Positions 9,400 to 60,300 of a stretch of DNA of 64,000 bases are shown here, one piece after another. Positions within the stretch are counted from its first letter, which is position 1, and every line of letters begins with the position of its first letter. The position numbers were made by a program, and so were the translations under genes. The notes under the pieces are model-generated. The model saw nothing but the letters and a program-made list of their open reading frames with translations. It was not told the DNA's origin and did not search any database. The DNA is from Psammoneis japonica (taxonomy: Eukaryota): the NCBI GenBank assembly GCA_008632985.1, contig QPGO01000251.1, forward strand, positions 1-64,000. The letters run 5' to 3'.

Positions 9400-10250
9400 T
9401 TTTTGTTGTCCTTGTCCTTTCCCTTCCTCTGGCTGCCGTTGTCTTTTCAAGCTTCTTCTCTGCTGTTCATGCACTCCCAGAACTTTTTCAGCCCAACTTT
9501 GTTGCACTTGTCTGATGCCTTGCTCAACCTGTGCTTGTGAATCTGTTTCCCAATTCTTTGCACCTCTCCAATCCTTTCTTCTTCCAACCATGATTCCTTT
9601 TCACTTTGCCACCTGTCCCATTGCTCCATTTCACATTTGGATGAGCCCCTTGTCTCTGGCCTCCTTCAACTCTTCCTTCATTTTTCCATGCACATGTGCA
9701 CCCACTTGTTTCAATTGTTCTCTGCAACTGGCAGGTCAAATGCCTTGTTGCTTGCAGATGCCAACTTGTTCAAGCAACATCTTGATTTAAGCCAATGCTT
9801 CCACATTGTTTTTCCCACCACAATCAGCAGGAGGTGCACCATGGTGAAATGGCTTTGTGCCATTGTGTTGTTCCTCCCCTCCAGCATGTCCTCCAGAGAT
9901 GGCATCTTGGCATTTTCATCTGCTTGTGGGTTCCTCTTTGCATGATCCATGTGACCTGTGCACTTGCCAAACACCAAGCAACGCGTGTCAGCAATGTGTC
10001 AGTTTCCTGCATGCGGCACATTTTGTTTTGATGCAGCACTTGAGGAAGAGTTCTTTCTTCAGCTCCTCACTTGCATTGCTCCCATTTCTTGTCATTTGAT
10101 TTTGCACCTTGTCCTTTGATGTGCCCCAAATGTGTGCACTCTCTATTCTTGGGGTGTTGAGCTTGGACAGCACTCTCTTTGCAACCCTTCCATTGCTGTT
10201 GTACAGAAACTTGCACTGTCCAAACAATGCATTCTTGGAGCAGCTCTCCA
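9400..10250 (-). pseudogene. Fragmented coding relic of unknown, probably transposon-borne protein
   Basis: Protein-like fragments across frames (SEELKKELFLK, LASASNKAFDLPVAENNWNKW, GWKKKGLERCKEL, KVGLKKFWECMN) broken by frameshifts and TGA stops. Confidence 0.35.
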
Positions 10251-12139: not shown

Positions 12140-13270
12140 GTGTTGCATCAGAAGCATCTTCTCCTGCTCCACCCACAAGGCATGTGGGGCAAGATGTTGC
12201 CTCTGATGAAGGCAACAAGGAAAATGATTTCCCCCAGATGTGACCTTCATGGAAGGGACCTCTTTTGTGGATGCAGACAAGGATGGCAACAATGGGACAC
12301 TTGGTTCTGAGTTCATTGACAATGACAACAAGAGTGGCGCAGCATCCCGTCACTTGCAACACAGTTCTTTGCTGCTGCAGCCAGGGCTTTGTTGCTCAAG
12401 AAGAGTCACATCCAACAAAAGAGGCAAAGATGAACCATGTGGCATTTTCAATGCAGGTGAAGAACAGAGGCCCAGCAGCATGTCATCCATGTCCTCTGGA
12501 GAGGACTCCGACAGTCACTCAGAAAGCACTTCAACGGCCATTGAGCTCCTTCCTGTCCCCTCTGACAGTGAAAGCAGCGACAACAATGATGAGGAAGATT
12601 AGAGTCTGCCTGCATGTTCTGATGATGCAGTGCATGACTCGATGTTTTTGCCGCCCAACAGCTCAGAAGAGGTGGGTTGGTCCTCCCCACCTCAAATGGA
12701 CAACATGGCGGGTCATTGCATGACACACTGCAAGCAACCTGGGTTGACTGCAACAACAACAAAGACTGTTCACAAACAACTGGGCACAACTGATGGAAAT
12801 GTTGTTGCGCTTTCATGTGCAGTCAAAGAGGAAAGATGGCTTCTGGAGCACCAACAACAAGACAGAAAGGGAGAGACAAGGGAGGCTTCCAAGTCAATTT
12901 CCATTGTGATCAAAAGCATTCTTGGAATGGCCCCACTGACCAAAGTCACCCAAAAGATGGGAAAATTGAAGATGCGTGGAAACAGATGGGATCTTAAAAA
13001 ACTGAATGCCTTGTGCATTTGCCTGGAAGCATGTCCTGGCATGGATCCCGAATGGATGCCCAGCTGATCAGATGGAGAGCAATCACAAGCACTTTGCAAA
13101 GGACCCCGGGTTCCAAGCCCAAAAACAACATTCGTTGTTTGCAATGCAGACAGCAAACAACCTGCAAGGAAAGATGCTGCCACAACTGCAAGGTTGGCTT
13201 TTGGCCTCTGCTTGAACCAAGTTCCAGCTTGTTTTCCTGGAGCCTGTTTACACAGCACTGGTCAAATGTT
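12140..13270 (+). pseudogene. Relic ORF with acidic N-terminus and C-terminal Cys-rich zinc-finger-like segment (possibly piggyBac-like)
   Basis: SDSESSDNNDEED acidic tract, then RCLQC...K..CCHNCKVGF...ACF. No catalytic core is recognisable, and some Cys may be edited Tyr/Arg. Confidence 0.25.
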
Positions 13271-16200
13271 GCATTGGTGCATCTGGGGAGGCAGAGACTT
13301 GAGCTCATGTCACTCAGGAGTGGTTCTTCAAAACACAGGGACTCTGGAACTTCCACCCACAGTGACAAAACATTTGTGCCACACCATCAGAAGGTGTTGT
13401 CCCACAGCAAAGGATGCCATTGAAGCCACAGAGGTGAACATTGAAGGCATTGGCAAAGCAAGGGCCCACACCCCAGGCATCATTCTGGAAAACCTGTTTG
13501 CAATTGGGTCAAGTTTGCTCAAACATGTCAAGAGAGAGTCACATTTTGGGCATGGTGTGTTTCTTGATCAACACAGGAGGTGACAAACTGAATGATCCTC
13601 TGGCCTTGGTTTGCCAATGCAGCCATCATTTTACAGAGAGATGCCAATCACTTCAAGTCAACCATTTTGGAATGACATGCCAAGGCACAACACTGGTCAG
13701 GGATCCCATGTTGATCCATGCACAGTCTCCTTGATGAAAAAGAGGTGCTTGTGTTTAAAGACAACCCTGCCCTCAAGGAAGAGGAGCCAAGATGGGCTGT
13801 CAAAACTCAAAAAAACAAGTTGGCACCCAGGCTGCAAATTGTTGGAGCAAAATCTGCCAGCATTGCATGAAGGCATGCATTGAGCCAAGAATGTGCACTC
13901 TCAGAAGCCACAAGACAAAACTGCTGTTGAGAGACAAGCAATGTTGCAAGACTGGGTGCATGAAGTGCATGATCACACGGATTGGATGGAACTGTTCTCA
14001 CAGATGCCCATGTGCCAGCAGAGCAGATCCCAGCTCAGACTGAGTGGTTTTTAAAAAATGGAGTGGCAGTCTAAATGATGAGAACAGAGAACAAGTTCAT
14101 TTTCTGCCTGACAAAAGCAACACTGCAGCCACCTGTTCAGCCTGCCAATGGCCAGCATCAATCATTGACAAACCATTGTGCCATTCCTTTTGAGATTGTC
14201 AAGTTTTTTGCAGAACTCATTGTCAAATTTTCCAGTGTGGCCAGCTCCCTGTCTTCCATTGGAATGTGCCTTTTTCAAATCAGCAATCAAGATGCATTCT
14301 CCACCAAACAGCACAGTCTCTGATGAGTGCCACCTTTCACCCTGACAACTTGTCCAGTGTCACTTTCATTGGTGGAAATGACTTCAAAGAAGGCTTCTTT
14401 AGAGACAAAAAGGTTTTGATCAACATGAGCTGTGTCAACAAAGTGATGATCCAAGCTGCAGATTTGGTTTTTGTCACCACGGCCGCTGACAATTTCTCCT
14501 GATTGGTTTGTGAAGGGGCAGCACAAATGTTTTTCATTGCACTCTCTCTGCTGTTTCATTGTCTGTCTTCAATGGATCACATGGAAGCATGGGAAGCATC
14601 CAAGATTTCATCATCTTTGTGTTCTAGATGCATGAAGCAGAAAGGCAAGTGTCCAGTTGTCACCATGAACCCCGCCAGATGGTCAGCACCCAAGTCTTTG
14701 AAGTTTGGGACAGTGAGTGCCACTTCTGAAATGACAGTGCAACACTCTCCCACCCCAGCTCTGTGAGAGCATCCTGCTGTGTCGTCAGATTCTTGGCTGC
14801 ATGGAATGACATCGCACGTGTGGGAACACTCATTGTGCCATTCCTTGCAGGTTGGGAGGACAAACAAGTGGTCCCAGGCATGACGCTCCAGGGGCAGGTT
14901 CCTGTTCTCACACAGAAGCTCAGAGTTGATTTTCACAATGGCCAAGTGCACCAAGCAACTGAGGCAAAAATCCTGAGGTGGCAGGGGTTCAAATTGTGGT
15001 GCTGCTGCAACACTGTGCTGTGCACGCAGCAACAAAATGGCATGGCTGGGAAAATGCACTAACTCCCAAAGCATGGAACAGCAAGATGGTTGAAAGGAAA
15101 AAGAGGGAGTGCATTTGCATCAACTCATCCAAGGCACTGATGTTGATGTCAGAAGATGCCCAAATTTGTCAAGGTTGCACTTCATCTTCAATGCTTTGAA
15201 CAGAGTGATGCAGTTGTGAACCATTGCACTGCTTCTCACATGATCCAAACCAATGGATTTGCAAGAATCTGGCAAAGAGTTGCAAACTGACGAGACAGTG
15301 TTCACACAAGGTGAGTGAATGCTTTCACCAACACCTGTTCATCATGTTCATTTTGCATGTGTTCCACAACTGCTGTCCATTGAGGCACTCCCACATCACT
15401 GACAGTCTCTCAAGAAAGAGCGACAACATTTTTCTTGGTTTTCTTGAGGCCATTGTGTTTGTTAAAGTGACAGTCAAGGGGATTGGAAAGGTTGGTGCTG
15501 GCCACATGCATCAACAGAATGCATCAGCCAGGAGCCATTTTGTTGGTTGCCTTTCTCAGTGTGGATGTTGGTTGGGTTGTTGTGACAAAACAATGCTTCT
15601 CCTGGAGAAAACCAAGGGACATCTTCCACTCCTTGCTTGGTGCAGTTAGATGAGTGCAGAAAGCACCACGAGATTGCACACTGGGCAGACATGGCCAATG
15701 GACACAACACACCAGAAGTGCTGCCATGGTCCTTGCACATGCCCAGCAACTGTTGCCAGCAGAGGAGGAAGAATCACAGATGTCAAAATTTGCTGGCTTT
15801 CTCAGATGCAGCCTTAAAATCCAATTGGCCAAGGATGGGTTGGCCTTCATTGACAACATGAGGGCTGGCTTTGTGGTGATTTTTATTTGGACAATGCACA
15901 TCAAACAAGATGCTGTTTTTACAACAAAAGTGTCAACAACAGCCTTGCAAATGTGTCTGAATGCACCATCATGCAATGAAAATGCTTCCGTCAACACAAA
16001 TGGATGCCCGACCCCAGTCAAGATCAGGCAGCACAAAATGAATGTAAGCAATCTGCATCCAGCACTTGTGGCTGGCCCAACCAAGTGTGCAAAGTGAGGA
16101 GATGCTCTTCCGGTGTGACTCTTTGGGGTCTTTGTGCACCATCCCAACATTCTTGAGTCCTCTCATCCATTGGGTGGTGCCAACTGGGGGGTGGTTGATG

Positions 16201-16644
16201 ATGCCACAGGAACCACACCAATGGGAGATTGGGTGGCACAGCTGGGATGTTTGGGGCCTTGCACAACTGGGCCATTCATGACAGGATCCATTGCAGGCAA
16301 ACCAATTGATGAGTCACGGTGGAGCAAGAGAAGGAGGGAGTGGGTGCTTGAGGAAGCACTGCCTGGACAGTGACGGATTTGCTGGGGGCAGGGTGCAGAC
16401 ACCAACACTCCTTCAAAGGCTGTGGCAGTGGGAGGCAAGAAACGTGCAGTCGAGATTGCAGGGAAAAGATGAGGTGAGTGCAGTGGATCCATCACCAAAA
16501 AGAAGGGGAGATGTGGGATGAACCACAACAAAGCAAGCAAAGTGGTCCATGGAGAAAATGTGCCGCAGATGTCAAAACCATCTCCAAAACCATGGCAATG
16601 ATGCATCACGGCAGTTGTCCACACAAACAATGGGAAATCCAACA

Positions 16645-16955
16645 ACAACAGCTGTGCCCCCAGCAAGGGTGGGAGTCATGGGATGAACGCTGGCAGCACA
16701 CTCTCTGCTGGCTTGCAAGCCCAAAAAGTGGCATCTGGCGGCTGTTCCCCCAAAGCAAGGAGTGAGAGGGTGGGGCACACCGCAACACAATCATTGAAGG
16801 GCATGTCCACTGACATCACTGTGCCCCCTGTGGAAAAGGGGGGCATGGGATGAACCCTGGCAGCAATGTCAGAAAACCCTCAAAAAGCAAAGAAAACCCA
16901 GCTGTGCCCTTTGCAAACATGGGGGGCATGGGATGAACCCTGGCAGCACACTGGT
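16645..16955 (+). repeat. Three dispersed copies of a ~50-bp motif CTGTGCCC..GGGGCATGGGATGAACCCTGGCAGCA
   Basis: Copies start near 16649, 16817 and 16899. A partial GGGATGAACC occurs at ~16515. Confidence 0.75.
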
Positions 16956-18562
16956 GGACGTCTCCAGTGCCAACCCCATGAGGCAGCACTGCAAAACCTC
17001 CACAACAAGATGAAGTGGTTTTCCACATGGAGGCTTTGCAGCCACGTCCTTTGCTGCTTTCTGCCACTGCTTCTTTGATGGATGAGAGCGGCGGCATCCC
17101 CTGAACTCCTTTGAATGGCCGGCAGGGGACAAACAGTGAACCATGGCACAGCTGGTGTGTGGAGATATGTTGCTGTGGTCACAAAATGAAGCTGCAATCA
17201 AGCCAAAAAGCAAAAAGTTGCAAAAAAATGTTGTCATGCAGATCCAACTGAACAAAATGAAAATTTGAGAACAACCAAACTTCCACGCTGAGCAGGACAT
17301 TGACACGATTGGACGAGATGCAGGTTGAAATTTTTGTCATGGTTGGAAAACAGCACTGCCATTTAAAAACAAAGAGGAGGCAATTTGCCAAAAAAAACAG
17401 CATCAACCAAAAAGAGCTTGTGTTTTGTGCAGTGCATCCGTGTGGAGAACACGTGGGGAGGATGTCTGCTGGGAGAATTTAGAACAATGTGTCTGTTTCC
17501 TGCAGAGCTGGACAAATTGAAAATCAAGGAAGTGTCAATTGGAAATCAACAGGCTGCAGGATTGATGCAGACACCATGGGAGTCAGGCAGGGTTGTGTGA
17601 GAAAAATGTGTGTGTGTGTGTCGCATCAAATGAGGGTCGCCCCCTGTTCAATGCGAGACCTGCATCAACCCCAACTCTGATTGGAGAGAAAGAAGGGCTT
17701 GTGGGACATGTCATTTGCACAACATCCTGACACACACAAAAGCTGGGTGAGTGGCTGTGGGGCTCTTCTTTCTTCAACAACTGCCCCCATGCTCTGTGCA
17801 CTGCACAGTGCAAAGCAAAAGCTCTGGGAGCAAAGTGCCCGGCATTTTGTCCCAGGTGTTTTTGTTGGTGCTGCACAGGGCATTGTGGAATTCAACAAGA
17901 TGCCTGGCCTCCTCTGTTGGAACAAAAAGTGTGACAAAAAATCTTCTGTGACTGGGCCACGCTTTTTTGAGCAGCTGGTGCACTTTTTTTTGTCAGAGAG
18001 AGGTCTCTCTTGTGGAGTGTGGGGTGCTGATTGGTGGCTCAGTGATGATGGGGGGTCTCAATGGGGCAGAAGTTGATGAGGCACAGTGCGTCAAAGATGG
18101 CCCTGTGAATGAAGGACTGCAGTTTGTGTGAGACCTCGGCGGGCAAGCTCTCCATCTTTGTTAGTTCATCAGTGGCTGGGGAAACCACCGGCAGCCCACC
18201 GCACCTGGAAAAAGAGGTTTACGTCGCTGCATGCAGAATTTGTCAATCGAACTGTTCGTCTCGTGCGTGTGTGCCTCAGCGTCATTGCGTCGAGCAACCC
18301 TGTCCACAACGCACAGACATACAGCGGCAAGCGGCAACGTATCATCCGTCGATCGATCGCACCCTGCCCAAGCTTTCTTTCATTTTTTCGCATTCTTCTA
18401 TGTTCACCTCTCGGACATCACGGAAACTGTAGCTTCGCATCATTTCACCGAGGGACACGAGCGCTTTGGGTCATGCGCATAATCTTTAACTTTACTCATA
18501 TTCGCTGTTTCCTTTTCGCACTTCACGTTCTTGAATTCTTTTGTGAAGGCTTCACGTTAAGA

Positions 18563-34981: not shown

Positions 34982-36124
34982 TGCATCGCAGTGATTTTGG
35001 CAACAGATAAGATGTCGGCGTGACGCGTGACGATGGCTTCTTCTTTCGTTGTGATCCGATTTGTGGACATGGTCGTGTGGACCAAGGTGCGCGGATTGGT
35101 GATGCGATTCAATGTGCGAGAGTTGCACGATGGAAGGACGAACGCATCGCATCAGGTTGCTTGTTAGCTTGTTAGCTTGGCTCTGCCATGCCGTAGATGA
35201 GTTAGGACAGGGCCCGCTCCACAGCCACCACTCTAGAACAGATGCCTCCAAATCCAAAGCTAGCTTAGAACCGGTGCTTCCCAGTGTGTTTGTCTGTCCT
35301 GGTGTGAAGACTTCCTCCTCTCTCCAAGCTGGAAGTGGAAACACACAGAGCTGAAGATGGGACGAAATTTCAACCAAAAGAAGGCAGCGCCCTGACTGTG
35401 GGGTGGGAGCTGGGTGCTTCGAGCAAGAAATTGCTTGGAAATGTTGATGCTGAATGTTGTTTTTTCCTTCTTGGCACCTCAACTTGCTGGTGCAGAGTGC
35501 ACCAAAAAGGAGCCACTTGATTGTGGCTCTCAAATTGTGGCTCCAACAAGCTGCCAGAAAGTGAGAGCAGCAAACACCTCAAGATCGAAGAAAGACAGCC
35601 CTTCTTTTTGTTGACCCTGCCAGCAGCAGAGAGACTCTGACATTTTCTGGAAGCAAGACAACAACCCTTGGTGGCATCACAACAAGAACATGCTGCTGAT
35701 TCAACACTCTGGAAACACCCCAGATGAAGCTCTGAATGAGCAAACTCACTTGGCACACCCAAGCACAGAGCTTTGAAAATGTCCGCTGTGCCAAGGACAG
35801 AGTTGCAGCACACAATTGAGTTTGCATTTTTCTCTCATTGTGCTTCTTTGCCAACCAGAGTGGATTTGTTGCAAATCAAATTTTTGCAACAATGTGTGGG
35901 AGCAACTGCGCTTCACACATGGACACGATCAACGCAAGCAAGCAATGTCTCTGGCCGCAATGACACCCACACAATTTTTCTGGAGAATGGACAAAAGCAA
36001 TTCTGGCAAACTTGACTTCTTTCTTTGTGCCTTTGCCATTTTCCTTGTTGTTGTTTTCTTGTTTTTCTTGACAAGCTGTGACACAAGCCATGGGGCCTTG
36101 TGTGCTCTGGCTTCATTTGCCCAG

Positions 36125-36690
36125 CACTTGATGCTGTTGACAACACCCTGAATTGCAGCCAGTTGTTTGATGTTTGACTCACCTCAGCTCATTGATGTTT
36201 GCTCAATGCTTGATGCTGCAAATGATGTCCTGATGACTTGCTGTTGTTTGCTTGAAGCTTGACACTGATGACAACACCCGAACTCATCTCTGCTTGCCCA
36301 ATGCCTGGCACTGTTGACAACACCCCAACTCCTTGCTGTTTGCCCGGTGCTTGTGCAGCACTGGCACAGCACCTCAACATTGATGACACCCCCACTCATT
36401 GCTGTTTGCCTGATGCTCAATGCCGTTGACGATGCCCTGGCTCATGACCACCATTTGCCAGACACTCGATGCTGTTGACAATGCCCCAGCTTCTTGTTGC
36501 TGTTTGCCTCTGACACTTGGTGCTGTTGAAGATGCCCCAACTCCTTGCCATTTGCTTGGTGCTTCTTGACAGTGCTGACAATGCCCCAGCTCATTGCTGT
36601 TTGTGCCTGGTGCTTGGTGCCATTGACAATGCCTGACATTGATGACACTGGGGCCAGTTGCCATTTGCCTGATGCTTGGTGCCACTGGTG
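36125..36690 (+). repeat. Degenerate ~48-bp minisatellite, about 11 units
   Basis: Approximate consensus TGCTGTTGACAATGCCCCAGCTCATTGCTGTTTGCCTGATGCTTGA. Units differ largely by TG/CA/CG alternation. Confidence 0.8.
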
Positions 36691-38249
36691 CCAGACAAAA
36701 CATGCTCAGATCTTGCGCACCCAGGCTGTTCAATGATGCATCCAAACCTCACAAACCTTGCCACTCAATGACATTTCTGTTGCTCTTGGTTGCAAATGAC
36801 AGCACTGGAGAGGGTGCTTCATTCATTGGGCAAAATGACCCAAGTCTTTGACAAGAACTGCTGGTTCTTGTTGCTTTTTTCAAGGCTTTCAGCAGAGGCA
36901 GTGATGCAAAAAGCACAAGGGGGTGCCCTCAGGAGGACAAACTTTTCTCAGATCCATGCTGTTGGTTGACAAGGTCTTGTCCAGCAAAAATTTTCCTTTG
37001 GGTTGTTGCCCCCACACTGTGAGCCCACCAGAGAGCTTGCTCAAAACAACAAGCAACAGATGTGGCAGATCTGCACTGCCATCAATGAAAGACCCAGCCC
37101 AACCAAACCCACCCAAAAAACATGCCCATCATTCTCACCCATCAGCCTTGCCCCTGCCTGGTCATGCATGTTGTTGGCATCTGGTCTGAGCTTGCAACAA
37201 GACAAAATGACACTCTGAACATTTGCTTTGTGAGCATCACTCTCATTGTCATGAAACCACTGCAATTGACAGAGCAAGAGACTGTCAATGCAAATGATGT
37301 GAGAGCCTCTCCCTCATGTCATTTGCATGCTCAAAGGGCAGTTTCAGCATTCTGACAAAACAGCAAAGCAAACAGTCTCTGTCTCCAGGGGAATCATCAA
37401 AGTGGCACATCTGAATGTCAGCATCACCAGGAAGCCACACACTGAGGCATAAAATGCTGAACAAATCCTCAGACATGGCCAGAGCTCATGTTGAGATTTT
37501 CTTCTGTCTGCAAAGGCAGCAACATCAATTTCTTTTTGTTCAGCCACATTTGGAGCTGCCAAGTGGTCAAGGATCCTGCACCCAAATCTTCAAGAATGTG
37601 AGCCCACTCAGGAGGCCAGCTTGGAGTTTTGCAAAATCTTCATGGAGCAGCTTCATGCACCCCATCATGTTGAAGCAACATCTTCTCTCATTCATGACAC
37701 ACCTTCTTGTCTGCAAGGCCCCACCACTCTGACTTGAGGTGCTCTTTTCAGCATCAATCTTGACATGCACTTTTCCTCAACATCATGAAGGGGCAGCCAC
37801 ACTCAGCAGCACAGATGGCACAAGAAACCCAGGGACTTTGACAGAAAGAATGAGGTGGACAAAGACCACATGATGAACATTTGTGTCATGTTGGCAGCAA
37901 CAAACAGTGCAACACAAGAGGGCTCTCACCAGTGCTCACCAAGATGTTGCCACCCTTGAGAGGGAGATGTGACATGAGCTCCTTTTGTCCACCAATGACA
38001 CACCTTCCATGCCGCATCTGGTGGTGCCTGCACAGCCTGTTTGCAGCTGCAATGAAATCATCCCCTTGTGCTCCGTGCAGTTTTTGAATGTGTGCCTTGC
38101 AACACCCACAAAACTCACTGCTGCCATTGCAGCCACACCTCAAAATGGGAGCTTTTTCTCATGCTGATGATGCTGCTCTTGTGGCCAAAGCTTCTGCAAA
38201 AGCCAGCCATTGGAAGATGAAGCTTCTGATTGGCCCCTTCACAGTCTGG

Positions 38250-39050
38250 AAGACTGCTGCAGTTGTGCTTTTGGACCAGCTTCCAATGTGCTCATCAGAC
38301 AAAGTGGAAAACCCCATGACCTTGTGCTGGAGCTTTGCTGTGTGCTCTCTCTCTTTCCCATTTCTCTTGTTTGGTGCCCAAATGTCTGGTTTGGTTGCTG
38401 GCAAATCTGGGCACAAAAGTGCTTCTTGAGGTCTGGCAGAGACATGCTCTAGTTTCCTTTTGGCGTGGGGGGCTGTGCTTGGAGCACTTCATTTTGTGCT
38501 TGGCTGACAGCAAGTGGTGCAAAAGAAGATGGGAGCATCAAAAATGCCACAGCCAGTTGCCCCCTGCATGCTGCCAGGGCTGTCTTTTCTGACTGTGTTC
38601 CACATCTTGTCAGTTGGGCTCCTTGTGATCTTCCATGTCTTGCCAGCTTGGCTCCCTTGTCCTCTTTCTCTTCTTTTTTTTGCCTTTCTGCTCAACAAGC
38701 TCTGGAGTGCTGCTGTGGCTGTGCTTTTGGACCAGCTCCTGTTGCTCATCAGACAAAGCAGCAAATTCTGTGTTGTTCTTGTGTTGGAACCTTGTCCACC
38801 TTTTCCCATTTTTCTTGTCCATCTCAGTCCACTGTTCTGGCACAAACATGTCTGGACACAAGTGCTCTTCTTGAGGTCCATCAGAGACATTCTCCAACTT
38901 TCTTTCAGCAACCCATGCAAGGGCTCTGGTGCTTGAGGCACTTCCTTAAGGTGACTGGCCAACAGCAAGTGTGGTGCCCCAAAGATGGGAGTGTCAACCC
39001 ATGTGGGATGTTGGGTCTGGCATGCCAGGGTTCTCTTTTCCAGCAGCTGC
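38250..39050 (+). repeat. Diverged tandem duplication with ~455-bp period (38255-38600 vs 38708-39050)
   Basis: Colinear shared anchors: TGTGCTTTTGGACCAGCT, GCTCATCAGACAAAG, CTTCTTGAGGTC, ACAGCAAGTG, AAGATGGGAG, TGCCAGGG. Confidence 0.75.
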
Positions 39051-41019
39051 AGTCAATGTCTTGTCAGTGTGCCCATCCTCATGCATGGCAGTGTTTGTCT
39101 TCTTTTTCTTCTTTGTTGTGGGTTTCATTTTTGGCTCTTCCTCTTCCTCCTCCAGCACTTGTTTGCCTGTTTTTCCTTCTGAAAGTGAGTGGAGAGCACC
39201 AAGCATGCATCAGCTTGACAAGCTGCAAAACAGCACAAAGACAATCTCTTTCCTTGATGCACCACATCTGTTGGATTTGGCAACTGGCTTGTTGACCTCT
39301 TTGTCTTTATTGTCCTCATCTGTTAGTTCAATGCCAAGGACAAAAAGAGACAAAAGCATCAGTCTGGCACACCACAATGTGCAATGTTGTGGTGCACCAC
39401 ATTTGCTGGGTTCCTGTGAACAACAAGTGGGGCTGCCATTCATTGCCTTGTTTTTGGTGTTGGAGCTGCTGCTTGTTTGTCTGCAGAGCAGCACAATTTT
39501 GTTCTGAGCTTTTGCCTTGATTTGATTTGCTCAACAGCATTGAGCAATGTGGCCGTGCCATTTGCACTCACATTGTTTCATCATCATCAGCAAGCCCTGC
39601 ACATTTCTGCATGTTTCATTGGCATCAGTTGATTCATGCCATGCAACAACTCTTGCAAAATCCTTGTGTCCATTGAGACCAGATTTTGTGCTCTCCAATG
39701 AGCAATTTAAACACCACAAGCTCTGGCACCAAAACAAATTTCCTTTGCCCAGCCCACCAGCATGATGAGTGTTGATGTGCATTCAAACAATTTTTAAATT
39801 TTGCTGTGCAGCTCAACAAATTTGAGAAAGACTGAAAGAAGTTGGCAGAAGAGCTCACATTGTTTGCTGCCCAACTGCATGAGATGACACACAGAGGTGT
39901 GCCAGGAAAAACCTGGATTTGACCTTGTGGCACCCAACACATGCCCAGTGCTGGACTCAAGGTTCTTGCAGTCCACTTGTGCCAGCCCAACACATGCTGG
40001 GTCAGCACATGACACAGAGAGGGCACAACATGTCATCATTCCTTGCACATGAGTGTGCACACTCATTGTGCACATGAAAATGGCAACACCAGTGCACACA
40101 TGGTGGTTGAGATCTTGCACTTTTTTCTCTTGCCCCAGACTCCAAAAAAGAGCATCTGTCACCACTGCTGTGCGGAGCATGGAGCATTGTTGCCAAAGAG
40201 ACAAAGGGTGCCACACAAGGTGCAGCAAGGGGTTTGCATTGACTTGCACATTTGTGCAGCAGTGCTGTTCATCTCCTGCTGCAGAATTGCATTGCTCATC
40301 ACCAGCTCTGTTGCTGAAATGAGGAGTTTGCTTCTTGTCTCTGTTGTTTCTCTCATGACATTGCACCTTGCTGCCCCATTCTTGCGGGGCCTTGCTTGCC
40401 AAAGTTCTGGGGGAAGTTTCAGCTGAAGCACAGGTGTCATGTTGGACAAGCAAGGCACAGCCACCCATGATGCAGGGTTGTGCCTGCATCTTTGGTGATG
40501 ACCTGGCAGTTTGCAACAATGGGCTTGGCTGCAAGAAGTGCTCACCATTGAACACTGCTGAGAACCAAGATGCAGCAGCAGGTGTGACAAAACTGCCAGC
40601 ACTCCACCCTTTCCCCACATAACCTGCTGCCAAGTTGCAGTCACTGAAGGTCCTCCTGATGACCCACATCTCCAAAGAAGGAGACCAGAGTGGAGGTCAA
40701 ACCCAATGGGCTGAAAAAAAGCATCACAGCTGGCACAACAGCCAATGTGCACAAGACTCTGGCAGACTGGTGCCGTGCTTGTGACAAATTTTTGGGAACA
40801 CTTGTAGAACAAGACAGTGGCTGGCAAGGCTTTTTTGATGTTGTGTTTTTCAGCAGCAAGCATTTTGATGGGAAGTGCTGAAGAAGTGTGGCAAAAGTCA
40901 CTTGAAGCCATTGGCTGAAAAGCACAAACATGACACAAAATGAAAAGGAGTGTGGAAGAGAAACTGACCACACATCTTGATCTGTGTGCAAAGCTTCATT
41001 GTGGGAAAGGAAATGGCCT

Positions 41020-41470
41020 TGGAGCATCTTGGCTGTTGATGCCAGAGAAATGTTTGGAGTGTGTGAGGGAATTGTCAATGGTTTCAAGGCGTCTCCTGGT
41101 TGGGTTGTGAGCACCCTTGAGAGTCATGGCAAGATTGGTGCTGATTTTCATGGAAAACAGAGGAAGAGGCAGCTGAGGCAATGAGATGATGACAAGTGAA
41201 GCTTTGCCAGCTCATTGAGGGAAAGGGACATGCAGCCAGAAAGTGCAAATGCAGTGCAAATCAGACAAGACTGTTCCTGTCAGAAGCTCCCAAGCTGCTT
41301 GCATGTGGACAAAGCTGCAAAGAAAGACTTTGTCATTGTCAAGAAAATGAAGGACAAGACCCAAATCGTGATGCTCCTGGTTTGTACATCAGCTGCTGGC
41401 AGGAAAGTTCCTTTGGCACTCTGCAATTGGGAAAGCTGAGAAGCTGGTTTGCCTCTGTGTTTGAGCTCTG
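41020..41470 (+). mobile_element. pogo/Tigger-like (Tc1/mariner superfamily) transposase relic: end of CENP-B HTH and start of DDE_1 domain
   Basis: GFKASPGW...HG....FHG, then across frameshifts CSANQTRLF-CQKLPSCLHV...KMKDKTQI.MLLVCTSAAGRKVPLAL..GKAEKLVC. This follows the pogo pattern FKAS.GW / YN.D.TGLFY..LP.R.YV / K.R.T...C.NA.G.K.P...GK..KP.CF. Confidence 0.8.
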
Positions 41471-41559
41471 ACCGGCAAACCAGGCATGCTCGAAACTTGC
41501 CCCCACTCAAACCGCATTCTCAGAAGCAAAAGAGAAACATGTGGACATGTGACAGTGCT

Positions 41560-42006
41560 GGAGTTGCAGACCTCGACAGATTTGATAAAGAGACTGTGGA
41601 CTGTTTGTTCGAGTTGAGCTTGACCACGACTTTTGTGCTCAATTCACGAAATGATAAGAAGCTCGCCCGAATGGCACGCGCCTTCGTTGAGGGAGATGAG
41701 AATTTCTTGTTCAAAAATTCAGCGTCAAAAACCATCTTTGGGGCACTGGTGCGGACCTTCATCAATCCCGCTGGTTTGGCTTTAATCCAGCATGTAATGT
41801 TGTGTCACTATTCCGATACGTTGTCAGCGCAAGAAAAGGAAAAAAGTGCGCTCTGGGGTCAATGAGGAGATGGAGCATGTTCTGGGACTCATCAGCTGGC
41901 CACGATCCTACCTTAAACGAACTCGCAACCATAATGGAGGATACTCCGGGATGGCCGTGTCAGTGGTAGCATCAAGACAATGGTGATTGAGGATGATTTA
42001 GATTAA
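41560..42006 (+). pseudogene. Possible 3' remnant of an unknown gene abutting the transposon block
   Basis: Protein-like frame DLDRFDKETVDCLFEL...; after a frameshift it can run to ...MVIEDDLD*. No start or family recognised. Confidence 0.25.
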
Positions 42007-43374: not shown

Positions 43375-44880
43375 ATTGTGTGGTGTGTTGAACATCAAAG
43401 AGAATCCCATTTTCCACATCCATTTGCTGCACTTAAGTCCTGTCCACTGGCACAAGAACCAAAGCAACCAGCAAGAGCCAGCACATTTCCACACCCCCTT
43501 GATGAGTGGCTTTCTTGGTTTCCTTGCTCTGTCCTTCTCCTGTCTGTCAGTTTGGCACCTCTCTCAACACCAAACACCTGAAGCTCCATTGTCATCTTCT
43601 GATGCTTCCATTGAGTGCAAGAATGTTGAGAAAAAACAGCCTTCTTGTTGGCAAATGTGGTTGAGAAAATTGGCCTCAGCTTTGGGTGACAAAAGTGCAA
43701 ATCCACGCAAATTTTTCAGAAAGGTGTTCTCCTTCGGTGCTGTTGGTGGTCATCCTCAGACAAAAGGACAGTGACTCACCATGCTTGCCACACTTCTTGA
43801 TTGCTTCAAACAGCGCCTGCAAAGTGTTTGCAGACCAGCAGCTCTGCCACACAACCCAGCTGTCAGCAATGTGCTCACTCTTGCTGCAGTTTTTGATGGC
43901 ACAAGGTGAGTGAACAGAAACTGCAGAGTTTTGAGTCTCTCTCTTGCAAAATCACCACCCACTTCACTTGCTCTTTTTTCTCAACACTGCTGTCAAATTG
44001 AAGCTTTGCTGCATGAAGCGATCTTGCCAAATCGCTGTTCCTCCAAACTCACTTTCTCTTCTTCTGCACTCCACCCCGCACTTCATTCATTCTTTTTGCA
44101 AGATCAGCTTTTGTCCCAGCTCAAACTCAACACCTTTTGACCTTGGTCGGAGCTTGACCTTTGTTGCTCTCAGTGTGCTCCCAGAGAGTCTGCAGCTTTC
44201 AACAAAGTGTGCCAGCAGCAGAGCAAAACCTTTGTTGCTGCTGGCAAACTCATGTCATGAAAGAGGGCTGCAAGCAAGGTGTGTGTCTTGTGAGCATGCT
44301 TCACTGCGGCTTTTCTGGCTTGATTTGGTGCTGCAACAGCCACAGCAAAAAAGCCAGACAAACCAAAATTGCAGACAGCAGCAATTGTGTGCCATTGCTT
44401 TGACATCATGTTGCTCTGTTGTGTGCAAGACTTTCAAGGGTGGGTCAGTGGGAAGAGAGGTCATTTTTTAACAGCAAACATTTTTTGCCATTGCCCAACA
44501 TTTTGCCCTGTGTGCTGTGGTTTTGAGATGACTCAGAGGATGCCCAGAGAGCACCCAAAACACTTGTGAGCATTTCTCTGCTGCATGTCAGAGCTGTCAG
44601 ACATGCACAAAAGGTGTGCATGCTGTCAATCTTAAAACGTCAATTGCTGCTGGCTTCTGGTGACCAAGAGGTGTGCACCTCAAAAGCAGCCGCGTGTTGC
44701 CAGAGCCGCACTTCTCATGGTGCGTCATTGTTCCAGCACTTTCTGGGAAATGCTGGCAATCAATTGGTGTTCGTTGACCGGTCATGTACATGTTGTCTCC
44801 AGTCACTGAGCCAAGACCCCGCATTGGTCTTCATTCAAAACGCATTCTGTGTTTTTTCGTGTGGAAGGACACATGAAACC
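43375..44880. mobile_element. Block C: decayed repeat DNA, TpA- and CpG-depleted
   Basis: Only a handful of TpA in 1.5 kb; same composition as blocks A and B; family not recognised. Confidence 0.65.
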
Positions 44881-46267: not shown

Positions 46268-47213
46268 ATGCGGTGTGTGTCGTTGTTATTAGCTCTACAT
46301 GCCAGTCATGCGTTCGTCTACCCGAGTATGAAAACTCCCTCCTCTCTCCGAGCTAGAAGCAGAAACGCCGAGTTGAAGATTGCGAATTTCGACCAAGAAG
46401 GCATCTTGACTCTGGGGGAGGAACTGGATGCCCTGTCTCGACGTAAATTGCTTGGAAGTGTAGCTGCTGCATCGTTCTCCTTCTTGGTACCTCAACTTGC
46501 TAATGCAGAGAGCATCAAGTTGGAGCCACTGGATGTCAGCAAGTATGGCTTTCAAATTATGGTGCCAAATAGCTGGGAGAAAAGTGAGCAGACGCTTCAA
46601 GATCGAAGAAAGATAACCCTTTTCATTGACCCCGCCAGTGACAGAAAGACTCTCATGTTTCTGGCTTTCACTCCTATTAGAGATGACTTTACTCAGCTTT
46701 CATCTTTTGGAAATGTTGAACAAGTGGTATGTACAGAATGGATGGCATTGCGATGCGAATTACATGTTGTGACCCCTCATGCCGATCTCTTCTGCGCTTT
46801 TGCGTTTCGAAACCCGTACCGGTATGGCCGGTAGGCACAAACTACCATTCTTCCTAAAGGTGAAATTGCCGGGGAAGAGACTGCCAGCCGTATGATAAAA
46901 TCGGAGAGTAAGAAAAACGCCTACTTCTTTGACTACGTTGCGGACGTTCCAGGTCAACCCGAGGTGCGTATTCAAACCGCTGACACGATAATAAATTGAG
47001 GATTCTTTGATAATCGCCCCCTTTACAACTAACGTGCCCTTGTATCAACAATCTTAGACGCACTACCGTACGATCTTTGCTATCGCCCCAAATGATGGAG
47101 CCGCGGGTTCCACGCTGGTAACTATTACGGTGCAGACACCAGAAGATGGATACAGCGAATTGAAGGGAACTTTTGATGACATCATTTCCTCTTACGGCAC
47201 AAGTGGCAAGTAA
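46268..47213 (+). CDS. PsbP-domain thylakoid lumen protein; introns 46727-46834 and 46964-47057
   Basis: Signal peptide ending SHA-F, twin-Arg SRRKLL, ANA cleavage site, YGFQIMVPNSW, DFTQLSSFG; spliced frame is open to TAA at 47213. Confidence 0.85.
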
Positions 47214-52101: not shown

Positions 52102-52160
52102 TTTTGGAGCTTTAATGGCAGATGCTTGCACGACAGCTTTCGTGGCATTGTTGACGTCGG

Positions 52161-55100: not shown

Positions 55101-55193
55101 CTCCAGAAGGAGCTGGAAATGCAAATAAGATCGCTCTTTGATGAGAAAACAAGAAGTTCTTTCGTCGCTGATGCCGATGAAGCCAAAGAATAG
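52161..55193 (+). CDS. CLEC16A/TT9/GOP-1-like FPL-domain protein; several 1-bp frameshifts and one intron (~54932-55023)
   Basis: VFEYFCEK, QVLKTVSMLISN, LYYLLSNNHV, SFPLF. Frame breaks at ~52408, ~52907 and ~53870-53990. Confidence 0.8.
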
Positions 55194-56075
55194 TTTTAAT
55201 TGTTTGCCCGACTTGGTGCAGTTAAGACCTTTTTTTGCATAATGGCGTGACTCAAAGAATGCAACCATATGGAACGTTCAGCATTTTAGTTCAGAATGAA
55301 GCTAGCACAGCATGCATGGAGGCACACTCTTCCTCTCTTTGAGAGAACAGCTAGCTAGAGAGATCGATGATGCCACTCTAGACAGGGGCGTTGGCAACGA
55401 GACAAATGAAATCAGAGCGTGACGGACAGACAACAACACGCGTTCTTCTCCTCGGCTCCGGTGGGAAGCGAGGGAATCGAAAGCTTGCTGGCGGCGTGCA
55501 ACTTTCTACAGGCCACGAGAAAATGACGCAAATGAGATGGAATCTCCTCGGGAGGCGACCTTGCAACCAGAACGTACAAACTCTGGGCCTGCAGGTGGCG
55601 AGTCACAAAAATGTGACACCCACAAAGCACAGCACGCAACTCCGCAGATCTCTTTTCTCATTTTCTTCTTGATCTCGTTTCATGGTTCTGAGATGGCACA
55701 GGAGCGTGAAGGTGGCTGTGGATTCAATCACACCACGCAATCCAATGCAATTGAGGCTGCACTTTTTGTCTGGCCTGGACACCAGCCAAAATGGATGTCC
55801 CCATGAATCCACCTGACTTTGCTTGTTTCCAGTGCATTTGAGCAAACCACATTGTTGTTTGCATTGCCCCAGTGAAAAGTTCAAAGCACCAAGAAGTGTG
55901 TGAGCTGCTTTGGGCTGTGCATTGTGTCAGCTGCCATGCACATTGTGGATCTTGGTCATTGAGGAGCTGTGCCGCATTGACACCACACCATTCTTTGCAG
56001 ATTCAAAATGAAGCAGAAGCCATCCAGTGCTGTCTGTCATTTCCAACAGGTGTCTTCCAATGAAATTGCAACATC

Positions 56076-56583
56076 CAGCTACTAATGAGAGTTAATGTAT
56101 CACGGCGACGTGTTACAGCCTTTAAGGCGGGCCGTCGGCTTATTTTTTTCGCACGTCTTTTCCGGGTTTTTACGCGTTTTTGACGGGTCGCGACAGAAAA
56201 TAACACGACAAAAGCACGAGCGACAATGATGATGTTCGCGACGAGCGGTGAGTTGCAAAGTATCACCTCACGAGGGATACTCATTGGTTTTATTATCGTC
56301 ATACAGTGCAGATTGATTTATGTGCTTTCGTCCCTCGTGCCACTGGGCCAATTTTGAGAGATAGCGTAATTGCCGTCATCGTCGTGCTTCGATCGCGGTG
56401 CCTGATGTTCTCGTTTTCGTGGGCGATCGAACAATTCTTGTATTTAAAATTAATAATTATAAATAAACGTATTCAAACACATTGCTAATTTTAGGATAAA
56501 CGCGGAAAAAATGGGTCGGCGGTCCCCCTTAAATGTCACAAAGGGCGTGACAAAAATAACCTTTTGTCTGCATGCATGCTGCA
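56076..56583 (+). repeat. ~508-bp direct repeat, copy 1 (TpA intact)
   Basis: Aligns almost gap-free to 56820-57328; 30 TpA counted. Confidence 0.95.
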
Positions 56584-56587
56584 TTAT

Positions 56588-56657
56588 GAATTCATAGCGG
56601 AGTGGTTCATCGTAACCATCAGGCAGGAGGCCAGGGGTTCGAAACCCTGAGTGGGAG
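56588..56657 (+). other. tRNA-derived segment (Pol III A and B boxes); SINE head or tRNA pseudogene
   Basis: A-box-like TAGCGGAGTGG at 56595 and B-box GGTTCGAAACC at 56636, with tRNA-like spacing and a CAGGG/CCCTG stem. Acceptor and anticodon arms do not fold. Confidence 0.5.
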
Positions 56658-56819
56658 TTGTCTGCAGCAACGTTGATCACTGTCGAACGCGCAAAACTCT
56701 GTGCAGTTCTGTGTGTTCCTTCGTGCGCACCCACACTGTTCCGCCAAAAACGTGCAGTGTCAGCACACGTCAGCAAAGAGCCGCATGGACGTGTGATGCA
56801 TGGGGAGGAGTGCAATGCA

Positions 56820-57328
56820 CAGCCACCAATGAGAGTCAATGCACCACGACGACGTGTTGCAGCCTTTAAGGCGGGCCATCGGCTTGTTTTTTTCGCACGT
56901 CTTTTCCGGGTTTTTGCGCGTTTTTGACGGGTCGCGACAGAAAATGACACGACAAAAGCACGAGCGACAATGATGATGTTCGCGACGAGTGGTGAGTTGC
57001 AAAGTGTCACCTCACGAGGGACACTCATTGGTTTTGTCATCGTCACACAGCTCAGATTGATTTGTGTGCTTTCGTCCCTCGCGCCACTGGGCCAATTTTG
57101 AGAGACAGCGCAGTTGCCCTCATCGTCTTGCTTCGATCGCGGGTGCATGATGTTCTCGTTTTCGTGGGCGATCGAACAACTCTTGCACTTGAAGTTGATG
57201 ATTGCAAACAAACGCATTCAAACACATTGCCAATTTTAGGATGAACACGGAAAAAATGGGTCGGCGGCCCCCCTCAAATGTCACAAAGGGCGTGACAAAA
57301 ATGACCTTTTGTCTGCGCGCATGCTGCA
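56820..57328 (+). repeat. ~509-bp direct repeat, copy 2 (TpA converted to CpA/TpG)
   Basis: Same sequence as copy 1 but only 2 TpA remain, both in TTTA context. Confidence 0.95.
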
Positions 57329-60300
57329 AAATGTTCTGCAATCTCAGAGCTGGATTTGTGCATCACATTCTCTTGATTGCCCACATGAGCAGCCTTCTTG
57401 TGACTTGAGCATTGACGCCAAATGTTGCTGTGAGGCTGTTCTGCCATGGAGGCTGAGAGTTTGAGAAACATTTTGCAGGCATGTTGTGGTTTCTTCCATT
57501 GATTCAAGTGCAATTTTTGACACTTCATTCAGCCCTGAAATTTGAGCCAACACCTTTGTGGCAATTGCAAAACCTCACCCTGTCAACCATGAAATTGGCC
57601 ATGTTTTGGAAGTCCTGCAGCATCTGTGCATTCCTGGTGTGCAGCTGGCCATGATGGCCAGTGGGGATGTCCCTCACTGTGGCCACAATTCATCAAAATG
57701 GAAGATTGCTGTGGTTGTTTTGGGGACAAGAATGAAGGCCTGTGCTTGGCATTGTGTGCTTTGCTGACAGCATGCCCAAGCCAGAGAAAATGACTCGTGC
57801 ATCATGCCTGCCTCCACCACATCACCATCAGCTCAAAAAAGTGGCTCTGTTTGTTTTGTTGCTGTGAGCTTGTTCATCATGGGCTCTAAGCAGCATTTCT
57901 TCAGAGCTCATGCTTGACTTTCAGAATGTCCATGGTGCAAGAAGATTGAGGGTTTTGCATCAACAATCTGACACCCTGGCTGGTTGTGGTGGAGCACTGT
58001 GCCATCCATCCAATTGGCTGTTTTCACATTCATCTGAGGAAAAAAGAAAACAAAACTTTGCAAAATGGTGCAAAAAGTGAGCTCAGCAGTGTCCCTCCTC
58101 TCCTTGGGCATGGCTGCCTTGGCTCAGGTCACCAACAAACAAGCAAGCTCTCCTCCAAAACCCAGGACAAAAGACCCCTTTGCAACAGCCGCCAAGCTCA
58201 CGGCTTTTCTCACGCATCAGGCACAGCATTGTTTCCTTTGTTTTTCAGCAGCTTGCAGGCTCAAACTGGGCAACAACCTTGCAGCTTTTTCTCACTGGTT
58301 CTTTGGTCTGTTGCTGATGCCGTTTGCATTGCTCATGCCTTGTCAACAATGGCTGTTTTGTTGTGTTTGCTCTTGAAGTGAGCGACTGCAAAATGCAGCA
58401 GCACACCTCACCTCAACAACCAGTGGTGGAGATGAGAGAAAATTTTGACCCATTTCAAGTGGACAATGGGCTCATGAAAACAGGGGGCACTTGAACACAC
58501 CATGACAGATGCTTTGTGGCATTGTCAAAAGGAGCTGCTTGCAATTTGTTGTGTTGCTGCGCCGTTGCTGCTGGTTCTCAAGTGTGAACACTCATTGGAA
58601 AACAAAGCCATGTCATTTTTCCCTTGAAGTTGGGTGCTGCTTAAAAGCATGATTTGTTGTCTCATCTTTTGACGTGCAGGGGGGGGCGGCAGACATTGGG
58701 GGGTGGCTTGTGGCTGCTCTCCAAAAAAACTGAGAAGCACCCAGGTTTGCCAGAACTTGTTTTGAGCCAAAGTGCGCAGCTGGTGCAGTGAGAAAGAAGT
58801 GAGCAACTCCAAGATCAGCTCTTTCTGCCGGGCTGGCAAAATCAGCATGCTGGCAGAAACCAGCCAGTGCAGGCTCAGAGCAAACCTGGGCGGGACACTG
58901 TCTGTCTGGCCGGGAGACATTTGACGGATGTGAGCTGCTGCTTTGTGCCCAATGTCAATGGTTTGAGTCCAACACAAAATGTTGATTGCCAAACACACGT
59001 GGCCTCCTGACAATGGAAATTGCAACTTTTTTCGAAAACAGATTTGCTGCAGCCAACCACAACACAGATCGCTTTCTCAAAAATGATGTGATGACTCGTC
59101 TGCAATTTTGGAACGCCGTTGCGGCCATTGTGATGCCAACAGCAACCGATGCCAAAAATAGAAGCTCTGATGTCTCTAACAATGCATCTACCATGTCAAC
59201 TGACTCTCTAGTTGTAGAGAACTCGAAACAGTGCTTTTCTCTCTTTTGCCGTGCTTGACTGTGTAACAGCCAGGGATTGCTGGCACCAACCCGTTTTCGT
59301 GCGTGTGTGTGCGTGCGTGCGTGAACAACCCTTGCGAGGTCTGAAGGTCTGAGGTCGGGACATGATATTCGTGTAAAAATAAAGCATGATTTTTTGATTT
59401 CTGTATTTATGCGGCGATTCTGGAAAAATCTTGAAACAACACGACAATGGCCGAAATGCCGTTCATTCTCGAAAATTGAACATCGAGGCTGGCAAATTTC
59501 ATCATAAGGCCTAAGTTCATTGTTCATATCAAAATCGATAAACTTACGACGAAATTTTCCAGCCCCCACGTTCAGTTTTCGAGAATGAACGGCATTTCGG
59601 CCATTGTCGGCGTTGTTTGCACGATGATGCGCAGAACTCGCGGACAAGCCGTTTGTGATCTTTTCAATAAATCTTGTTAATTTTGCAAAACAAATTCTAA
59701 AATACTCAAAAAATGGCGAAAACAAGAGGGATAGTGGGAAAATCAAATTTCCGCCTGTCCTACGTGGGGAGGAGGAATAATGGAATCTGAATATTCTACT
59801 CAACCGGTTGAATGGAATATTTGTTGTACCAGACGATTTCGTAGCTTCTACGTGGGTCTTGAGTTAGAGGATGAAGCGTTGGAAGGAAGGCTGAAACTAC
59901 TGGGTGCCAGGTGCCATCCGATCCTTTTTGTTTTGTTCTCGAGGCGGGAAGAGAATGATATTATCTGCAATGTTGGGTATGAATTAGAAGTACATTTTAT
60001 ATTATGTTGCTGCAAGCTGTGTGGTAGGTACCGGTATGGATTGAAGCTATGGACGACATCAGCGACAGAAAGTGCAACAAGAAAATGCATGGTTTTGTAC
60101 ACCACACCAACTCGACAACGACGACTGGACAGCAACTCCTTGTATTATCTAAAAGATGCAATGGAAAGGCCGCGCCGTGCTATCTATCCTAGCAATAGGT
60201 CAATAAAGTACGAGCAAAATCCTTGTTTCACGGGTCCTTCTCAGTACTTTTCCTCCCGATGCGGTTATTCGCCGCGAGAACCTCGCGACCGCAGTTCGCG

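Follow-up and report, generated by a model that had tools for sequence, protein, structure and literature searches.

Several known processes change DNA through transitions at a favoured dinucleotide. In repeat-induced point mutation (RIP) of Neurospora and other ascomycetes, dense CpA to TpA changes on both strands of duplicated DNA disable mobile elements in sharply bounded tracts, while decay of 5-methylcytosine turns CpG into TpG and CpA. Polymerase eta in antibody somatic hypermutation makes WA to WG changes, with A to G at TA on both strands beside C to T at the deaminase target. Very-short-patch repair depletes CTAG in E. coli and is a precedent for a repair bias from TA to CA or TG; that process belongs to bacteria, depends on a single pentanucleotide, and acts weakly across the whole genome. 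Adenine deaminases of the ADAR and TadA types favour a 5' U or T, and ADAR edits retroelement RNA, an activity confined to one strand. APOBEC3 editing affects retroelements (PMC4866542), and basidiomycetes have a RIP-like hypermutation at TCG (PMC3318451). Here we compare these systems with 64,000 nucleotides of the diatom Psammoneis japonica (GenBank assembly GCA_008632985.1, contig QPGO01000251.1, positions 1 to 64,000; hereafter the window), in which the 3' long terminal repeat (LTR) of an LTR-type insertion at 56067-57328 has exchanged nearly all of its TpA for CpA or TpG.

The window carries a mutational signature that runs in the direction of TpA loss, is confined to domains, prefers certain tetranucleotides, and removes TpA before CpG. 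The underlying process is strand-symmetric, works by transitions only, is confined to sharply bounded chromosomal stretches, and acted on a young insertion. A limited literature word search found no description of TpA to CpA/TpG domains or hypermutation, and we know of no described domain process of this kind.

The insertion and its two terminal repeats

A first-pass annotation of the window had noticed two direct copies of about 508 bp, 744 bp apart, and had taken them for a before/after pair. The copies are as described: a repeat search paired 56067-56366 with 56811-57110 and 56397-56588 with 57142-57333 (spacing 744-745), and BLAST gave 90.8% identity over 509 bp. In purine/pyrimidine coding they are 98.7% identical over 523 bp. 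The conversion between them is also confirmed, but the pair consists of the 5' and 3' LTRs of a single non-autonomous LTR-type insertion of 1,262 bp, only the 3' half of which is converted.

The unconverted 5' LTR (56067..56583, forward strand) starts with TG and ends with CA. It is followed on the same strand by an internal region of 227 bp (56584..56810), whose polypurine tract GGGGAGGAG (56802-56810) directly abuts the 3' LTR (56811..57328, forward strand). The duplicated target site AAAT lies on both sides (56063..56066 and 57329..57332, forward strand), the left junction reading ccaatgAAAT and then TGCAAC. The right copy was placed from the flank sequence and from an empty-site contig, record 7 (2,002 bp) of sequencing run X1, which fuses 56062 to 57329 with a single AAAT left. 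This contig differs from the window at 10 positions, 7 of them across 54476-56062. Direct terminal repeats with TG..CA ends, an abutting polypurine tract, and a target-site duplication with its empty site are all hallmarks of LTR retrotransposons. Many X1 contigs have loose ends exactly at 56067 and 56583, and X1 depth over the LTR repeat runs into the thousands, against about 55-65 over genes. From this anatomy, the contig ends, the depth, and the empty-site contig, we conclude that a member of a very abundant family, small, non-autonomous, and of LTR type, has inserted here, with an empty-site allele in the same sample.

The read evidence comes from three runs in all, X1 and X2 among them, from one sample and one study. 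X2 has a spliced joint and no cover in the TpA-free blocks described below, and so behaves like RNA; no RNA data set was listed as containing this stretch. No primer-binding site was recognised by eye after 56583, and ARAGORN found no tRNA gene anywhere in the window that could serve for comparison. Rfam returned one chance-level match on 55000-59500 (E = 0.48), and a 28-mer exactly common to both LTRs had no match in metagenome contigs. On the sense strand at 56620-56660, the internal region has a tRNA T-arm-like stretch, GGGGTTCGAAACCC, called by neither ARAGORN nor Rfam; it may explain the very high contig depth of the bin 56216-56849. Each LTR also contains an inverted repeat of ~42 nt (56113-56154/56500-56541 and the corresponding positions of the 3' LTR) that matches at 95% in purine/pyrimidine coding. 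Joins across this repeat in several X1 contigs suggest shorter deletion variants of the family.

Base-by-base counts were taken from a global alignment of 56076-56588 (copy 1, the 5' LTR) with 56820-57333 (copy 2, the 3' LTR). The 31 TpA of copy 1 in the aligned span correspond in copy 2 to CA (15), TG (13), TA (2), and AA (1). The one read as AA falls outside the true repeat end, which leaves 30 within the repeat, exactly the 15 CA, 13 TG, and 2 unchanged sites first reported. Copy 2 has two TpA in total, in CTTTAAGG and ATTTTAGG (one TTAA and one TTAG context), each opposite a TpA of copy 1; none is new. Between the copies we counted 48 substitutions from copy 1 to copy 2 (22 T>C, 16 A>G, 3 G>A, 1 C>T, and 6 transversions) and one indel. 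The strong TpA specificity claimed earlier is borne out, the probability that at least 28 of 46 substitutions fall on the 12% of bases within TpA being 6e-15. Changes from A:T to G:C outnumber the opposite by 38 to 4 (p = 6e-8). Over the 517 bp of the LTR pair there are 50 differences (45 transitions and 5 transversions), and 7 of the 10 non-TpA A:T>G:C changes fall in ApT. None of the 30 TpA became CG by a double change.

Both strands were hit about equally, as the 15 CA and 13 TG had suggested. The two outcomes are interleaved in 13 runs among 28, where random order would give ~15 (hand calculation), and strand clustering in the LTR pair is not significant. A candidate rule by which a 5' T steers the outcome (TTA>TTG, TAA>CAA) was rejected, holding at a non-significant 11 of 16 decidable sites (hand count). 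CpG is largely kept in copy 2, again as first noted: copy 1 has 42 and copy 2 has 40, with 36 common to both, and three CpG in each direction read CA or TG in the other copy. Observed/expected ratios (o/e) for the 3' LTR are accordingly 0.06 for TpA and 1.22 for CpG. The internal region has three TpA at 56585-56614 and none at 56615-56810, and the TpA-free tract of the element (56615..57328, apart from the two survivors) runs on into the block on its right.

Blocks without TpA and CpG

Sliding counts, composition, and position lists delimit the blocks that surround the element and recur in the window. All of them lack TpA and CpG and are rich in CA and TG. Block 1 lies at 7958..18220, block 2 (35335..41683) contains a gene-fragment copy and old repeats, and block 3 lies at 43427..44821. 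Block 4 is divided by the insertion into a left part (55480..56062, covered by X1 record 7) and a right part (57329..59089). The blocks make up about a third of the window. We compared 20,351 bp of block sequence with 42,383 bp from the rest of the window and found o/e values of 0.04 and 0.58 for TpA, 0.15 and 1.02 for CpG, 1.80 and 1.14 for CA, and 1.82 and 1.12 for TG, respectively. Converting the missing TA and CG predicts ~1.84 for CA and ~1.81 for TG, which matches the observed block values. ApT is mildly low in the blocks (o/e 0.80 versus 0.91), AA/TT stand at 1.28/1.24 versus 1.16/1.14, and G+C is 48% in both compartments. GC-biased gene conversion was rejected as a cause, since the two compartments have equal G+C and the blocks show no depletion of AA/TT.

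The blocks are complex sequence in which no tandem repeats were found. Depth is ~65-77 in four block bins, near that over genes (~55-65), so the blocks are single-copy. They fill the long intergenic gaps, while introns and short spacers keep normal TA and CG; the signature is therefore not general to non-coding DNA. Strand skew is absent along the blocks, where the balance of CA and TG varies no more than it does in normal DNA (variance 1.65 versus 1.58). Among all 132 stop-to-stop open reading frames of at least 110 amino acids in the window, those in blocks had no Pfam family match at E<=0.001. At E<=0.05, 96 block frames (91 of 75-109 amino acids plus the 5 longest) gave nine weak matches below curated cut-offs and no mobile-element domain. 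Contigs of accurate reads reproduce the block sequence, X1 record 2 matching 43405-44280 in block 3 over 876 bp with 0 differences. At 43633-44280 there are two X1 contigs of ~40 depth each, one identical to the window and the other with 75 differing letters and 38 gap letters. The diverged contig may be a second allele, pointing to ongoing independent conversion, or a paralog.

A repeat outside the blocks offers a useful comparison. The 1.3-kb element at 50771-52104 has 48-bp terminal inverted repeats (50771-50818 and 52055-52102; 98% identical) and ~25-fold depth, and lies in normal DNA, where 82 TpA and 70 CpG are kept (50729-52154). It forms a second insertion polymorphism, since 50771 and 52104 stand 4 letters apart in one X1 contig. 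The first-pass annotation had proposed a mutator that acts on repeats, and this part of it is not supported: single-copy blocks, their rims, and a copied gene fragment were hit, while this repeat kept its 82 TpA. Because the target looks like a chromosomal domain, the term "repeat-induced" is unsupported, and domain position fits better than copy number.

The rims of the blocks give the order of the two losses. At seven of eight block borders read from position lists the TA-free zone extends ~100-400 bp beyond the CpG-free zone, the remaining border having no offset. Among 1,275 windows of 300 bp, 15 were TA-free with at least 8 CpG and none was CpG-free with at least 6 TpA. The largest TA-free, CpG-normal tract, obtained by merging windows (56651-57500; 2 TpA, 52 CpG), covers the 3' half of the element. 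The 3' LTR, with 28 of 30 TpA gone and about 3 of 42 CpG lost, is thus in the same state as the block rims, and these fractions mean that TpA loss is either much faster than CpG loss or further-reaching; by our own estimate it is at least ~30-fold faster. The CpG sparing first reported therefore holds for copy 2, which is an early or rim state, but not for the block cores, which are also nearly without CpG.

The losses depend on the neighbouring bases. We expressed survival as TpA (or CpG) by context in blocks relative to normal DNA. TpA survival was highest in TTAA (0.55), followed by TTAG/CTAA (0.17), CTAG (0.08), GTAA/TTAC (0.08), GTAC (0.065), and ATAA/TTAT (0.05). It was ~0.015 for ATAT, GTAG/CTAC, and ATAG/CTAT, and 0 for ATAC/GTAT, of which normal DNA has 223 and the blocks were expected to have ~107. 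Purine-TA-pyrimidine is thus the most exposed context and TTAA the most protected, and the two 3' LTR survivors, in TTAA and TTAG, agree with this. CpG survival in blocks was 0.06-0.10 in TCG/CGA and 0.15-0.30 in other contexts. This TCG/CGA bias recalls the TCG-targeted hypermutation of basidiomycetes, or a deaminase with a 5' T preference.

The genes in the normal DNA include two HSF genes, a glutamate-cysteine ligase, a nucleotide-sugar transporter, and others (Pfam), and pennate diatoms supply the closest named relatives of these genes, with 63-73% identity across the matched portion. Windows of 500 bp with at most 2 TpA were found in 0 of 80 diatom-like metagenome loci (337,467 bp); these loci are mostly short and gene-centred, so this null result says little about other species. 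At 41682-41814, upstream of an emp24-like gene, a half-depth contig differs at 28 places in ~130 bp, with many transversions, and X2 carries the alternative form, which would be a diverged allele or a paralog of this region. Just outside block 4, at 59434-59618, lies a near-perfect palindrome with 67-nt arms (90% complementary, 34 nt apart) and a depth of 200-500, probably a small foldback-type repeat.

Direction of the change and comparison with described systems

Several lines of evidence bear on whether TpA was lost from copy 2 or gained by copy 1. The 5' LTR is near the rest of the genome in TpA o/e (0.76) and TpA/ApT (0.72), whereas these values are 0.06 and 0.07 in the 3' LTR. A TATA box in the 5' LTR, TATAAATA (56458-56465), reads TGCAAACA in the 3' LTR. 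Family contig depth is 14,727 at 56402 and ~12,500 over the first 150 bp of the 5' LTR, against ~5,000 for the 3' LTR, and X2 cover is 66.9 in the 5' LTR bin and 0 in the 3' LTR bin. These depths are sums over contigs, so this line is soft.

Block 2 provides polarised evidence away from the element. A conserved host-gene exon (46268..46726, forward strand), with 152 homologs at E<=0.001 and no Pfam family, has a decayed copy at 35284..35647 (forward strand), which forms a second before/after pair with 46308-46662, at 73% identity, and has stop codons in every frame. From the unconverted exon to the copy there are 10 TA>TG/CA and 10 CG>CA/TG changes, and the reverse count is 0. In an alignment of 60 homologs, the state of the gene is supported by four informative columns (A 39/0; R 55/0; I 56/0, an ATA>ACA site; N 7/0). 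Block 2 also holds old tandem-like repeats (36106..36690) with 20 CA<->TG doublets in 284 aligned bp and a second old repeat pair (38245..38910) with 8 in 207 aligned bp; both are visible only in purine/pyrimidine coding. The control in normal DNA, two HSF paralogs of similar divergence (2512-2739 and 6210-6437, HSF-type DNA-binding, in opposite orientation from an old inverted duplication), has 0 such doublets in 228 bp. A CA<->TG doublet takes two adjacent transitions unless the ancestor was TA or CG, in which case one per copy suffices, so the repeat copies were converted independently after duplication. Composition, the TATA box, the polarised gene copy, the doublets, and the rims all agree with the earlier proposal that copy 2 lost TpA. 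The direction in the 3' LTR and the blocks is TpA loss, not a RIP-like gain.

The process is like RIP in its dense dinucleotide-specific transitions on both strands, its disabling of mobile DNA, and its sharply bounded tracts. However, RIP makes TpA through C:G>T:A changes at CpA, whereas the diatom process destroys TpA, with a net excess of A:T>G:C (38 versus 4), a TpA/ApT of 0.72 in copy 1 and 0.07 in copy 2, and no fall in G+C. RIP, which depends on RID/DIM-2 and the sexual cycle, is also triggered by duplication and mutates both copies. We saw no duplication dependence: single-copy blocks were hit, abundant repeats in normal DNA were spared (the ~25-fold inverted-repeat element is unconverted), and of the two LTRs the 5' one was left untouched. 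The blocks resemble 5-methylcytosine decay in their low CpG (o/e 0.15) with matching CA/TG gain and in the 10 CG>CA/TG changes of the gene-fragment pair, but such decay cannot remove TpA, which here goes first and further. The earlier statement that neither RIP nor CpG decay matches thus stands.

Polymerase eta, which had been offered as a candidate, fits poorly. It should target AA as well as TA and make many A:T transversions, whereas AA/TT o/e is higher in the blocks than elsewhere, transversions are rare (5 of 50 differences, against 45 transitions), and the change is near-saturating. A single-strand deaminase should leave one change type on one strand, but the 15 T>C and 13 A>G at TpA are interleaved. 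APOBEC3 editing likewise affects LTR elements with clustered transitions and a neighbour preference; as far as the part of PMC4866542 available to us goes, it makes one-strand edits on RNA or cDNA, unlike the change on both strands of non-mobile chromosomal DNA seen here. Block CpG loss is strongest at TCG/CGA, as in the basidiomycete hypermutation, which in the available part of PMC3318451 has no TpA component.

Explanations for the signature and its meaning

We favour, with a probability of about 0.6, the reading that a young non-autonomous LTR-type element inserted into a pre-existing TpA/CpG-free domain and that its 3' half was then converted in place, such domains removing TpA fast and CpG more slowly. 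The element, absent from the second allele in the reads, would have entered a diatom chromosome within a TpA/CpG-free domain that was already there. Its 3' LTR and adjoining internal part would then have undergone near-saturating TpA>CpA/TpG change on both strands about equally; conversion in place is suggested because the converted half now lies within the rim of the domain. Such domains would lose both self-complementary pyrimidine-purine steps, with CA/TG as the sink, TpA going fast by A:T>G:C and CpG at a slower rate by C:G>T:A, the change that methylated DNA would be expected to show. For the escape of the 5' LTR, we prefer the explanation that the insertion split the old domain and that a mark may now spread into the element from one side alone, the larger right-hand part.

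The substrate would be double-stranded chromosomal DNA of a silent, probably methylated domain, and the speed and specificity of the change suggest that an enzyme drives it. The likeliest chemistry is adenine deamination at TpA (A to hypoxanthine, read as G) beside (methyl)cytosine deamination to T/U at (T)CpG, hydrolytic deamination being the simplest chemistry that would serve both halves. A 5' T preference is known for TadA- and APOBEC-type enzymes. Thymine oxidation to a mispairing base would be an alternative, and a repair bias fixing T:G errors is another possibility. Diatoms methylate silent repeats, according to the part of PMC9998398 available to us. More tentatively, and with less than even confidence, we propose an enzyme system aimed at chromatin domains that erases both palindromic pyrimidine-purine steps. 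It would combine an A:T>G:C editor that prefers purine-TA-pyrimidine and spares TTAA with C>T change that prefers TCG, and would act as a genome defence and a chemical mirror image of RIP.

Several observations weigh against the favoured reading. Old block DNA lies on both sides of the element, yet the 5' LTR shows no conversion at all (0 of 33 TpA as far as 56614), so that a chromatin explanation has to place a sharp boundary within an element of 1.3 kb. Between the LTRs there are also 5 transversions and ~13 other non-TpA transitions (3.5% in all), compared with 10 differences in 2,002 bp (0.5%) between the flank alleles. A simple young insertion should not have diverged this far unless the process is error-prone or the 5' LTR is a replacement, and the excess also fits replacement of that LTR through gene conversion or through polishing with reads from the abundant family. 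At one polarised site in the gene fragment the homologs side with the copy: its TGT (C) agrees with 34 of them, and the TAT (Y) of the gene with 3. Depth is a soft argument, as the peak of 46,056 (bin 56216-56849) may stem from a short sub-repeat or a tRNA-like piece. Finally, the three runs share sample and study and may be the source of the assembly, and among the contigs listed none carries the 3' LTR or the filled junctions.

The divergence between the LTRs and the sharp boundary bring in the rival that we take most seriously, though we consider it unlikely: the signature would be genuine, but the two LTRs would not show one insertion before and after the change. Sequence of an unconverted family member would recently have replaced the 5' LTR and ~30-50 bp beyond it, through ectopic gene conversion or through consensus polishing with reads of the family, or the 3' half would come from an older converted copy, and TpA loss could then be slow decay. 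Overwriting would explain the step from 0/33 to 28/30 converted TpA inside one element, the 5 transversions in 517 bp that exceed an allelic divergence of 10 in 2,002 bp, and the odd difference in the first 9 LTR bases (TGCAACATC versus TGCAATGCA), and the very abundant family would supply plenty of donors and mis-mapped reads. Yet the empty-site allele lacks both LTRs and has one AAAT left, so the whole element came in one event and is young relative to the alleles. Moreover, the 3' LTR would still have lost 93% of its TpA and only ~7% of its CpG, which requires a TpA rate far above the CpG rate, and the rim pattern at the other borders requires no conversion event. The geometry of the boundary also recalls the reverse-transcription model, in which the unconverted 5' LTR plus ~30 nt roughly equals the strong-stop product (LTR plus primer-binding site) and the converted part equals the internal region plus the 3' LTR. 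APOBEC-like editing of the element's DNA copy might then have hit only its single-stranded part and spared the 5' LTR, a late copy from plus-strand strong-stop DNA. We regard this as improbable: single-strand editing should give one change type, not 15 CA and 13 TG in 13 runs, and the same signature occurs in non-mobile DNA, namely block rims beside genes and the copied host-gene exon.

That the signature arose in sequencing, base calling, or assembly, for example from modified bases at TpA and CpG being misread, is slightly less probable still. It would be consistent with reads that all come from one sample, possibly the assembly's own, with the absence of the 3' LTR among the contigs listed, and with only 71% of the sampled words of 55300-59300 being present in X1. 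On the other hand, the accurate-read contigs match the blocks (876 bp with 0 and 2,002 bp with 10 differences), and the stop-bearing gene-fragment copy and the target duplication are ordinary biology. CA and TG alternate within a few bases (TTATAAAT to TTGCAAAC), which strand-specific misreading of a symmetric modified site would not produce in 31-mer contigs, and the 0 of 30 TA>CG doubles would be unexpected if each position were miscalled independently. The least probable account, to which we give almost no weight, is a classical RIP-like C>T change at CpA/TpG on copy 1, with copy 2 keeping an ancestral TA-poor state. Only 28 of 91 CA/TG sites would need to change, a typical RIP dose, and fungal RID has a relative in diatoms, DNMT4, whose function is unknown (PMC9998398, in the part available to us). 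Against this, copy 1 fails the RIP indices (TpA/ApT 0.72; (CpA+TpG)/(ApC+GpT) 1.06), and the ancestor so implied would have carried 2 TpA in its 517 bp and lacked a TATA box. Copy 1 is the likelier family state by contig and RNA depth, and the polarised sites and CA<->TG doublets in the blocks point to TpA loss.

If directed A:T>G:C change at TpA in chromosomal DNA is true, it would be a new kind of programmed or domain-bound mutagenesis, and it would explain how this alga disables mobile and junk DNA without losing G+C. Erasure of TpA removes TATA boxes and two of the three stop codons. It also leaves diverged copies hard to recognise, in keeping with 20 kb of blocks without a detectable mobile-element protein domain. 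Should the more tentative proposal of a domain-aimed enzyme system hold, silenced DNA would have its promoters, reading frames, and repeat identity permanently scrambled. If an enzyme acts in this way on double-stranded DNA, it would amount to a naturally occurring base editor of adenine (or thymine) with a four-base preference, of interest for genome editing. The signature may further serve as a marker for silent diatom domains that needs only sequence, in which TA-free DNA that retains CpG would be young or rim DNA and DNA free of both TA and CpG would be old.

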